DNA from: Girardia tigrina
Lineage: Eukaryota
NCBI GenBank assembly: GCA_001938485.1
Contig: MQRK01230034.1
Location: forward strand, 1-64,000
Direction of reading: 5' to 3'
Length of the DNA stretch: 64,000 nt
The position numbers and the translations under genes were made by a program. The notes under the pieces are model-generated. The model was not told the DNA's origin. It ran no database searches and saw only the letters and a list, made by a program, of their open reading frames with translations. Positions 60,685 through 64,000 of this stretch are shown here, in pieces (positions within the stretch are counted from its first letter, which is position 1; each line of letters begins with the position of its first letter).

Positions 60685-61306
60685 TGTCTTAATTGGCCCC
60701 TGACCGATTTTATATTTAAAGACCGAGAGCCTTTAGCGAAAACTCGGGTTGGTTAATGATTAAAGGTTTCAGTCACACTTTTCAGCGTGATTATATAAAA
60801 TATATAGTATTTAATTATTTAATATTATTCTTTCAATTACTTTTGATGTCAATCAATGATTCTTTTCTTTCCTTGTTATTTCAACAAGTGTTCTCGTTCT
60901 AAACTTCATCGTTTTGCGTCGCACTTAAATAGATTTGTTCGACTTAATTTATGCGACGTTGTCCAGACTAAAATAAGCTTATCTTTACAAACTTGAAACT
61001 CAAATTCTTGAAATTTAAACTCTTCTACTACTGTACCTTTTAATTAATAATGACATTTTATACTAGTTCTTTCTTTTTAAATCAATTTTATTTTTTAATT
61101 TAAATTTATTATTTCCTTTTAAATACATGTCCTTCTTTCTTCTTTTATTTAGTTAAACTTTTCTATTTTCTTTATTTATTTATATAAAAAATATAATTTT
61201 ATATTTCTTATCAAAAATATTTCATCTATGAAAAATTGTTTAATAATATTTATTAGTTTAAAACAAGTACATAATAAATTATAAATTTTAGGATATTACC
61301 TCAACA
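60685..61306 (-). mobile_element. Putative 3' LTR (622 bp) of the retroelement extending beyond the window
   Basis: Minus strand TGTTGAGG...TTAAGACA, starting ~190 bp downstream of the last ORF and preceded by a GGGGAC...TTTT motif. The partner LTR is not in the window. Confidence 0.5.
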
Positions 61307-61495
61307 ATTGTGGAGGGCACAAAAAATTTATGTCCCCATAAATCGTATAAAAGAAAAACATACATATTAATCATACAAAGCTAAATCAAAAATAAATGAC
61401 AAAACAAACCAAGAAAAAAATGATAGTTTTACATATCAAATAAGATTAAGATTCAAATGATGAAAAGTATTCGCTATCAGATAATGTCACATCGA

Positions 61496-63525
61496 TTATA
61501 TCGTCATTTTCATCATCGGATGGAATAAAGGGGTTGTCCACCATTGTGGGAATCGAATAAGAGACAGATGAACGGAGAGGAGAACCTCTCGATATTGTGA
61601 CAAATCACCATCCGTGCATCGGTCGAGATCGATCTGTGAAAAGGACATATATGGGCGCTGTGGCAAACAATTAATATAGCTTTCGTCATCCTGATCTATA
61701 TCCTTCAACTCGTCCTCAAAAACGTCCCAATTTCCATATTTATGGTATGTGTCCTTATTCATAATTATACCTGATGTGTCCTTAATATTCTTTTTAATGG
61801 GAATAATTGGCACCCTAAAATTTGTTACCGGGTCATACTCTTTATCTTGTATGCATTGTTCTTCATCCCAATTTGGCGTGGGTGTTACATCTTGTACTTG
61901 TTCACGAGGTTTATTTGGCTTGTGACAAGGTGACAATGATTCAATTTCTTTTTCTAATGGGTGTTTTTGAGGGCTAAGGCTATTATTGGATATCCATTCT
62001 TCGGTAATTGGTGAGGGTGGTGAATTTGGAATATGTGTGAAGATATTTTCGACGTCCGTAGACGATATCGTATCTTTCCAATATAATTCGACTTTTTTTA
62101 TAAATATCCAATACTGCCGATACGTCCTCCTCGGCAATGTGGTATCTAGATTGTATATCTCTTTGAATGAGATATCTAGACAGGGTTTTTAGTTTATAAA
62201 AATCACCTTTTAGTGGTACTTTGAATTTCTGGAAAACGGGTGCTGCTGCTGTATCCCTAATGCCTAAAAAGGATTCTACTGGTAATTCTAGTCTCCTGAT
62301 CTCAATTTTTAAATAATTCCCAACCAATATATTTCCGAAGAGATGACGGTGGATTTCGTTTATTGCCTCATATTCGTCGGGTTGTCCTATGACATCTGTC
62401 TCAGTTATGCCGTGGAAATCATCGCACCGATCATCTATGTGTACAAGAGGCTTTGCTAAGGTATTTAAAATGATTTGTCCATTATAATCCATGATAACAA
62501 CGGACACCACATGGAACATTTTGTGAATATCCTTAGCGAACTCCGCGTCGATGAATCTTAGGCGACTTTGTATTTCCGTTATTGGCAGCACCTTCCTTAA
62601 AAAGGAAGCTCGTTGAGCTATTAATTTATCGCTAACGCGTAGATCTGACTGGATGCGTAAAAATTATCTCGTTTGAAATGGGTTAATGGTGTTGTAGAAG
62701 AGGAAATACTCTATAGCAAATATGGCCACTCCTCGGGCTAGTAATATTCGGACATCATTTACTTTTTCTTTTTCGTCTGTTTTTATATTGTCAGGAAATT
62801 GTATTTGTATGGACCTACGGACGGGTAAATTAAATTTTGACGTACCATACCCGATAATGAGTGAGGAAGAGACAGCGTGTATGCACATTCCTATTACTCT
62901 AAAATGCGGATTGTTTGAGGTTGTCGGAATATTTTCCCGATATACTCCCATAATGTCAGAGACGCGGAATAATCTGGCGCCGTTTCTTTTTACGACTCTC
63001 ATACGCTTACTGAAATCGTTATATACGAGCGTATTTGGGTATGTGTTTGGGGATGGGTATTCCAAACAAATTATGGGTTCTTTCCCTTTGAGGCCACGTT
63101 GAACTAATTTGTGGAATGACGCTGCATACTGAAAAGGCCTTATTGTAAAATTAAATATTCTGGTGATGGTATTCCTTATGGGCTGTTCTGGGTTCCAATC
63201 TGATGGGAGGGGAATTTCCTCTACTGATAATGTTATGTGTCGCTGCTTGGCGAACTTCCTTCGCTTCGCGTATTCGAGTTTTACAAAAGGGGATATGTTT
63301 TGCAACTCTTCGGTCACACGTCGATCTCGACAGAACACGTTGGATTTGGTAATTTGTCCCTCAAGCACGGATTCTATTTGTGAGAAACGATTATAAGATA
63401 ATGAGTGTTCATTTGCTCTGATAGGCAGAGCTTGAATTTAATCTGATTTTGTTTGAATAGGATTTGGGTATTTTTTTTCTCATCTTCTGGAGGAATTGTT
63501 CTGCCTCTCTCGATACTGGTTTCAT
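61496..63525 (-). pseudogene. Disrupted ~675-aa gene: scramblase/Tubby-like domain, REX4/ISG20-like DEDDh exonuclease and acidic tail
   Basis: ORFs 62664-63368 and 61983-62591 are in frame across one TAA. Removing one A from the A7 run (62093-62099) gives DIYKKVELYW and joins 61496-62137. Exo motifs FIDAEF, LVGNYLKIE, HIAEED. ATG at 63525 follows a TTTTGTTTTAG acceptor. Confidence 0.75.
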
Positions 63526-63649
63526 TTCTAAAACAAAAAGTAGATATATTGTGTTCTTTTCAACACAATAGAAGATAGAAATATAAAAAATAAACAGATA
63601 TATATGAGATTTAAAATCTCTATGCTCATACAGCATTTATATATGATTT

Positions 63650-64000
63650 TTATACCTGTGTAGAATTTACGGACATCCCAGATAGGTATTTATCCAGGGA
63701 TGTACGATACAAGTTTAAAGCCAAACGTTTCTTTTTGTATTTTTTATATGTTTCTATGATTCCATATATTGCAAGAAGTAAAAACAGAACAACACTTATA
63801 CCAAGTAATATGAATGACCAGTGATGATGCTCATGGAAGTCATTATATATAACTGCTTTTGGTGTATGTTCCTCAAACAGTGCTTGTTTAGTTGTTATCT
63901 TATGTTCTGTAGTAGTTGTAACTTGTCTTTTTGTATTTGTCTCTTTAATGTAAGTCATCAATTTATGAATTTCGTCTGAATGTTCTTTTATCTGTACGTC
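63650..64000 (-). CDS. C-terminus of a type I membrane protein, env-like (5' part outside the window)
   Basis: Frame is open to the window edge; Thr-rich stalk, TM helix WSFILLGISVVLFLLLAIYGII, basic stop-transfer KKYKKKR and a short tail; no introns seen. Confidence 0.65.
   Translation of the reverse strand, partial: DVQIKEHSDEIHKLMTYIKETNTKRQVTTTTEHKITTKQALFEEHTPKAVIYNDFHEHHHWSFILLGISVVLFLLLAIYGIIETYKKYKKKRLALNLYRTSLDKYLSGMSVNSTQV

Follow-up and report, generated by a model that had tools for sequence, protein, structure and literature searches.

What kind of DNA lies between positions 60685 and 64000 of Girardia tigrina contig MQRK01230034.1? The window analysed was the first 64,000 nt of this contig, and an earlier note, made from the letters alone, had proposed that it ends in an env-bearing long terminal repeat (LTR) retroelement whose last gene, a scramblase-exonuclease, is expressed by splicing. 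On the minus strand the region reads, in order, as a membrane-protein open reading frame (ORF; 64000-63650), a spacer of 124 bp, the start codon at 63525, coding-like DNA over ~2.1 kb (39% GC) and an AT-rich tail (Table 1); neither gene has introns. The gene order, the acceptor motif, the decay, two protein folds, the catalytic conservation in relatives and the breadth of the family were established directly. The locus is probably the decayed 3' accessory end of a multi-copy complex LTR retroelement, and the cassette is best read as behaving like the 3' accessory part of such a retrotransposon, to which we assign no named family. Its value lies in a family of pseudo-dioxygenase/exonuclease proteins, and not in the dead copy in the window or in the env and scramblase labels.

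The nuclease gene and its protein family

A protein search among 4368 candidates returned three relatives of the window gene: P0001 (700 aa, ~84-85% identity), P0002 (49%) and P0003 (36%). When P0001 was aligned to the window by tblastn, the gene was recovered in four frame segments with identities of 84%, 83%, 67% and 53%. The frameshifts lie between 63476 and 63424, near 62095 and near 61580, an in-frame stop is present at 62666-62664, and the true gene end is the stop at 61448-61446; no single ORF covers the gene in the window. The window exonuclease matched PF00929 (E 4e-5), with one catalytic position substituted. Judged from these lesions, the window copy is dead and would yield no full-length nuclease. 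Of the dense, intronless coding proposed earlier, the lack of introns was borne out, whereas the nuclease gene, with three frameshifts and one stop, lacks an intact ORF.

A profile of P0001-P0003 was searched against 1.84 billion representatives and gave 2692 matches at E up to 0.001, 43 of them at 1e-30 or better. The family counts that follow rest on the best 150 of the 2692 matches. By iterative hidden Markov model searches, a domain of ~180 residues ahead of the nuclease was found to be common to 50 of 153 proteins, with identities of 15-38% in its family alignment. Pfam scans covered 71 of the 149 new proteins; many matched RNase_T, and no scramblase, tubby, reverse transcriptase (RT), integrase or gag family match was obtained among them.

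P0001 was modelled with AlphaFold2 on a 56-row alignment. Across residues 131-490 the block predicted local distance difference test (pLDDT) score was mostly >85, falling to 69-82 in places; the tail was disordered. The modelled nuclease superimposed on ISG20 (Z 20.4, root-mean-square deviation (rmsd) 2.0, 159 residues aligned) and on Arabidopsis SDN1 (Z 15.1, rmsd 3.2, 171 aligned). The N-terminal domain matched the algal prolyl hydroxylase 2jij (Z 10.8, rmsd 4.0, 161 aligned), and further matches were 5iax, 5c5t, 7zsc and Ofd2 (Z 9.5-9.7); the five entries cover model residues ~102-289 with an eight-strand core. Foldseek agrees with a 2-oxoglutarate (2OG)-Fe(II) dioxygenase fold for this domain (E ~2e-4), and the Atlas held no usable match for the N-domain piece. 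On the predicted structure, the N-terminal domain is a 2OG-Fe(II)-dioxygenase-type double-stranded beta-helix (DSBH).

The first half of the name scramblase-exonuclease was therefore dropped and the second kept, now for a pseudogene: the exonuclease is of the DEDDh type, the N-terminal half has the beta-helix fold, and neither the window pieces nor P0001-P0003 nor the 71 scanned relatives gave a Scramblase, LOR or Tub Pfam match. The scramblase/tubby barrel is filled by a C-terminal hydrophobic helix; the look-alike segment here is a beta-strand, residues 273-282 (block pLDDT 82-94). No scramblase or tubby entry stood among the fold matches listed, an absence that is no evidence since these lists were filled by the nuclease domain.

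The positions of the iron motif were mapped from strand order and the standard motif. Of 41 complete rows, 1 carries an HxD/E in the strand II region and 9 have a His within the strand VII region, at varying places, so that no distal His is conserved; position 274, where the basic 2OG-binding residue is expected, is small or hydrophobic. Conserved instead are His223 (37 of 41 rows) and Glu279 (36 of 41, plus 4 with Asp). The alignment thus indicates that the iron-binding site is lost and that a new His/Glu pair is retained. The domain shares the eight-strand DSBH core of the prolyl-4-hydroxylase/Ofd2/poxvirus C4-C10 fold (Z 9.5-10.8) but differs from it in sequence (6-10% identity) as well as in the near-absence of HxD/E and the new His223/Glu279.

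In the nuclease domain, 47 of the 56 rows span all five catalytic positions (the other 9 are gapped), and 37 of these 47 keep the complete D-E-D-H-D set. A quick tree was built from 135 of the 153 nuclease domains. It places every one of the 44 N-domain rows in a set of 59 rows that a branch with Shimodaira-Hasegawa-like approximate likelihood ratio test (SH-aLRT) support of 98 splits from 76 stand-alone REX4-like proteins; in 15 of the 59, not all of them checked, no N-domain was detected, and some of these are fragments. The catalytically dead forms are mostly in one long-branched subgroup (P0037, P0038, P0040, P0044, P0052-P0054, P0063, P0068 and P0097), and in the nine of these ten proteins present in the alignment the catalytic residues are lost and the N-domain is kept, which suggests a binding-only form. 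ISG20, ISG20L2, REX4 and SDN1 are the closest sequence and fold matches listed and share the DEDDh residues, whereas the fusion proteins group apart in the tree and have the beta-helix at their N-terminus. By alignment and tree, the pseudo-dioxygenase/DEDDh fusion family appears deeply diversified: among the best 150 matches it spans ~50 clusters at 50% identity, including the subgroup without catalytic residues.

The most plausible role of a dead dioxygenase fold is to bind a substrate or a partner, and with its iron site lost the beta-helix is probably an RNA- or protein-binding module. ISG20 and SDN1 act on RNA 3' ends. Because the nearest enzymes do so and the dioxygenase fold is dead, we favour a counter-surveillance RNA nuclease over maturation of element nucleic acids or other roles. 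Tentatively, then, the fusion protein could trim or destroy single-stranded RNA ends and so blunt host small-RNA or nucleic-acid surveillance; that it matures the element's own RNA or cDNA ends is possible but more doubtful. There is an outside chance that it represents a widespread lineage of invertebrate complex retroelements with a two-gene 3' cassette, namely a glycoprotein of a new type, for the surface or for entry, and a spliced nuclease for counter-defence, whose dead dioxygenase domain reads modified RNA and passes it to the ISG20/SDN1-like exonuclease. If true, this would amount to an element-encoded destroyer of Piwi-interacting RNAs (piRNAs) or small interfering RNAs (siRNAs). For the question of how animal transposons counter small-RNA silencing, the pseudo-dioxygenase/DEDDh fusion is a concrete candidate that can be assayed; an intact natural protein, P0001, and a confident model exist for the family.

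The fusion extends a known capture of exonucleases and AlkB-fold domains by LTR elements to a fused form. According to the part of the account available, rotifer LTR elements carry a DEDD ORF3 (DEDDy), which is typically spliced, and small transmembrane (TM) ORFs (PMC5408684). The bdelloid Juno and Vesta elements resemble the present locus in having an extra 3' DEDD 3'-5' exonuclease ORF, with TM ORFs replacing a canonical env; theirs is RNase D-like (DEDDy/DEED), whereas here an ISG20/REX4-type DEDDh nuclease is fused to a beta-helix and follows a separate glycoprotein ORF (PMC5408684, same excerpt). Giant Gypsy elements of Phalaenopsis have likewise captured a 2OG-dioxygenase fold as an additional ORF, in that case an active AlkB-like 2-oxoglutarate-dependent dioxygenase (2-ODD) that demethylates N6-methyladenosine (m6A) in plants (PMC9289625), whereas the domain described here lacks the iron motif and is fused to a nuclease. 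No literature title or abstract was found to describe a beta-helix/DEDDh fusion in mobile elements; Repbase, subscription journals and supplements may do so.

The membrane protein and the splice acceptor

The frame that runs off the window ends, as had been claimed, in a membrane-anchored C-terminus of 116 aa with one TM helix and a basic tail. Its homologue P0004 (392 aa, 94% identity; 109 of the 116 residues identical) was the sole relative found among 156 candidates, and a second homologue search, among 1164 candidates, found only the protein itself. P0004 has a hydrophobic N-terminus, nine N-glycosylation sequons in its ectodomain, five Cys, a Thr-rich stalk, one TM segment near 338-360 and a basic tail. 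By hydropathy and sequons it has an env-like layout, with a signal-peptide-like N-terminus, a glycosylated ectodomain and a C-terminal TM anchor. No RxxR (furin) site and no internal hydrophobic stretch were found in it.

Class I fusogens are marked by a furin site and a hydrophobic fusion peptide, and class II and III fusogens by a Cys-rich or long ectodomain. Class II or III would call for a longer and more Cys-rich protein than this one, and the marks of class I are absent. Because the full-length relative carries none of these hallmarks, the designation env is unsupported. The protein gave no significant Pfam, PDB sequence or Atlas match, and a single-sequence model reached a pLDDT of 39. 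From its sequence features it is best described as an orphan type I glycoprotein for which the env label is unproven; it may be a novel entry protein, and an attachment or host-modulating surface protein seems more likely than a fusogen.

The 124-bp spacer and the acceptor two bases before ATG 63525, both claimed earlier, are real. The acceptor is the TAG at 63530-63528, with pyrimidines at 10 of the 12 bases before it. Counted over both strands of the window (63,232 non-N bases), acceptors of equal strength number 68, a chance of ~0.5% per 10-nt stretch. The spacer contains no AATAAA, no ATTAAA and no TATAAA with a CA[GT]T initiator. TATA-like words occur in it at 63643, 63641 and 63604, and such words are common in the window at 3.8 per kb per strand. 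A near-perfect palindrome, seen by eye as a hairpin, lies at 63611-63625.

ATG 63525 is supported as the start by P0029, which begins at the equivalent Met. P0001 is annotated as starting 12 residues farther upstream and runs through the pyrimidine-rich stretch; its source contig is therefore unspliced there, and this start speaks neither for nor against splicing. Given a strong acceptor in a spacer with neither a polyadenylation signal nor a TATA-initiator pair, splicing to the acceptor before ATG 63525 is a reasonable inference. In an intact element a single long RNA would start from the LTR promoter (TATA and CAGT), and its splicing to 63528 would put ATG 63525 first on a subgenomic mRNA. 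The spliced expression and the function of the cassette are inferred, as is the identity of the LTR.

The candidate LTR and the nature of the element

Downstream of the nuclease gene a 17-nt polypurine tract (PPT) leads into a candidate 3' LTR. A 17-purine tract with TGT occurs at 2 sites on both window strands and in 0.3-0.5% of 2000 local shuffles. In the candidate LTR, TATAAAA is followed by CAGT exactly 30 nt on (A at 61032), and such a TATAAA-CAGT pair occurs three times on both strands. The top eight GC change-points lie at 60677-60694, where GC drops, and among 11 CA ends, 60685 and one other tie for the highest 6-nt inverted match, at 5 of 6. Together, the PPT with TGT, the TATA-CAGT spacing, the polyadenylation words (ATTAAA at 60823 and 60815) and the GC change-point, all in LTR order on the coding strand, support an LTR.

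The LTR had earlier been drawn as a TG...CA block preceded by ~190 bp of untranslated region (UTR). Its end at 60685 fits the GC change-points, whereas its start has been moved, as TG and CA occur 39 and 33 times in the 843 nt of tail and a TG...CA pair is by itself at chance level. The ~190 bp was probably counted, to go by the arithmetic, from the shifted-frame stop at 61496 to TG 61306. That start, and likewise 61271, was rejected as having no purine tract before it, and on the sequence features the LTR is better begun at 61127. A 3' LTR with a spliced last gene accordingly keeps its place, with a different LTR start and with three features not cited before, namely the PPT, the TATA-CAGT pair and the conserved start Met. 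The opposite orientation was also considered. In it the plus-strand sequence beginning at 60694, which may loosely resemble the complement of a tRNA-Glu end, would serve as primer-binding site; this reading was discarded, as it would leave both genes antisense. Two observations by eye may be added: a ~45-codon protein-like open stretch without an in-frame ATG at 60900-61055 (minus strand), inside the proposed LTR, and a short hairpin at 61305-61337 in the 3' UTR, next to TG 61306.

The order proposed for the element would be gag-pol (beyond the window), the orphan type I glycoprotein, the splice acceptor, the accessory nuclease gene, the PPT and a short LTR. The features that decide membership of the Ty3/Gypsy or BEL/Pao elements, namely gag and pol (RT, RNase H and integrase), the 5' LTR with its primer-binding site and a 4-6 bp target-site duplication, would be located past 64000. 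Near-copies exist at diverged identities (P0001 ~84%, P0028 76%, P0004 94%), with 5 cluster members for P0001 and 4 for P0004; together with the decayed window copy they fit the behaviour of a mobile element.

Several points weigh against an LTR retroelement. Both the PPT threshold and the LTR statistics were set once the sequence had been inspected. AATAAA occurs five times ahead of the candidate LTR or early in it, and the A/T skew change-point at ~61259 is nearer the boundary drawn earlier than 61127. At 60714 there is another TATAAA, followed at a distance of 29 nt by a CATT that falls precisely at 60685, so this site could be a promoter rather than an end. Among 182 TGT/ACA pairs the terminal inverted match is nothing unusual, and catalytic residues are lost in 10 of the 47 complete nuclease rows. 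The window contains no RT, integrase, gag or second LTR (no other copy of 61127-60685 was found in it), and none of the 71 Pfam-scanned relatives has RT, integrase or gag fused to it. No DNA context was obtained for the relatives: genome-contig scans gave 149 and 44 pattern matches, of which 0 were confirmed, and a phage collection gave none, so the link between the family and LTR elements rests on a single locus.

The alternative that survives best, with a small chance of being right, is the end of an integrated DNA virus or Polinton/Maverick-like element, in which each gene has its own TATA promoter and polyadenylation signal and the glycoprotein and dead dioxygenase are immune modulators like poxvirus C4/C10. 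Dense genes without introns suit it, as do the TATA words in the spacer, AATAAA 61254 and the TATA-initiator pairs at 61062 and 60714; fold matches in BFVD include poxvirus C4L/C10L-like proteins, 2OG oxygenases and giant-virus exonucleases, and Polintons are active in planarians according to the available part of one report (PMC8532177). However, the viral fold matches are remote (<=22% identity), the spacer has a strong acceptor yet neither a TATA-initiator pair nor a polyadenylation signal, and a PPT-TGT...ACA layout would be unexpected.

A lower probability still is given to a lineage-specific host family, that is, REX4/ISG20-like defence nuclease paralogues without introns beside an orphan membrane gene, the LTR features being due to chance. 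The nuclease is of cellular type, no core gene of an element is seen in the window, and expanded host DEDDh nucleases reportedly restrict retrotransposons (PMC10123124). Such a family would nevertheless have to account for two intron-free genes 124 bp apart beside a host gene spread over >38 kb, and for diverged near-copies, decay and the layout of PPT and promoter.

The earlier suggestion of a Burro giant Gypsy family member is unlikely and ranks below both. In the excerpts available, the Burro1-4/GYPSM1 elements of Schmidtea resemble the locus in the AT-rich host type, in accessory ORFs and in virus-like complexity (PMC6431247), and an AT-rich genome fits planarians, at >70% A/T (PMC11410931). 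The same excerpt places the Burro env in frame between gag and pol of the polyprotein, whereas a stand-alone membrane ORF is visible here (the polyprotein region would lie outside the window). It gives an internal region of up to 25 kb in a total of >30 kb, which implies kilobase LTRs, against 443-622 bp here, and the motifs it describes, apoptosis and ubiquitin motifs among them, include no exonuclease or dioxygenase (PMC6431247); no env inside a polyprotein, long LTR or apoptosis or ubiquitin motif was seen here.

Least likely of all is the cargo region of a Penelope-like giant retroelement of Terminon type: DEDDy and TM ORFs are common to Terminons and LTR elements in the available excerpt (PMC5408684), but the nuclease here is DEDDh and not DEDDy, no telomeric repeat array is present at the end, and 59000-64000 contains no hammerhead and no Rfam match at gathering score (2 matches, both sub-threshold).

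Feature coordinates and host surroundings

Table 1. Features at the end of the window, as positions in the 64,000-nt stretch
Feature	Position	Strand	Remarks
Type I membrane glycoprotein, C-terminal 116 aa (Thr-rich stalk, TM helix, basic tail)	63650..64000	-	Frame runs off window; 109/116 identical to P0004
T-rich spacer	63526..63649	-	124 bp; without AATAAA/ATTAAA; ends in pyrimidine tract and TAG 63530-63528
Pseudogene of DSBH, DEDDh exonuclease and acidic disordered tail	61446..63525	-	tblastn of P0001, four frames
DSBH domain (approximate)	62680..63170	-	P0001 residues ~128-283
ISG20/REX4-type DEDDh exonuclease domain (approximate)	62075..62570	-	P0001 residues ~325-490
3' untranslated stretch	61147..61445	-	T-rich, turning A-rich near 61259; AATAAA at 61254, 61180, 61149
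17-nt polypurine tract (candidate PPT)	61130..61146	-	Followed by 2 nt and TGT
Candidate 3' LTR, TGT...ACA, 443 bp	60685..61127	-	TATAAAA 61062, CAGT initiator 30 nt on; ATTAAA 60823/60815
Flank, candidate target-site duplication	60680..60684	-	Position beside the 60685 end

The neighbour of the element is an intron-rich host RasGEF gene on the same strand (18034-56522, minus). Its exons include 56298-56522 (RasGEF_N), 34053-34481 (weak) and 18037-18345. The element would lie upstream of RasGEF or inside it, in an early intron. An N gap in the assembly is present at ~54950-55700, beside a TA repeat, and the window contains no tRNA genes.

A TA-flanked element at 57962-59833, which we take to be like a pogo/Tigger miniature inverted-repeat transposable element (MITE), is bounded by terminal inverted repeats of 28 nt; farther in, it has a pair of inverted arms of 105 nt (58220-58324 and 59254-59358). 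Inside it is a GC-rich island (59380-59720) unlike the AT-rich host, which may be foreign or captured DNA; the island holds the window's only other 17-purine tract with TGT (59527-59510) and, near 59455, what is presumably a Staf/ZNF143-like motif. Farther away, a transposase fragment at 24474-24809 (plus strand), presumably of the mariner-like class, gave a weak HTH_32 match. Separate from this fragment, an ORF piece at 29142-29516 lies between inverted arrays of 29-bp repeats in the region 28811-29609.

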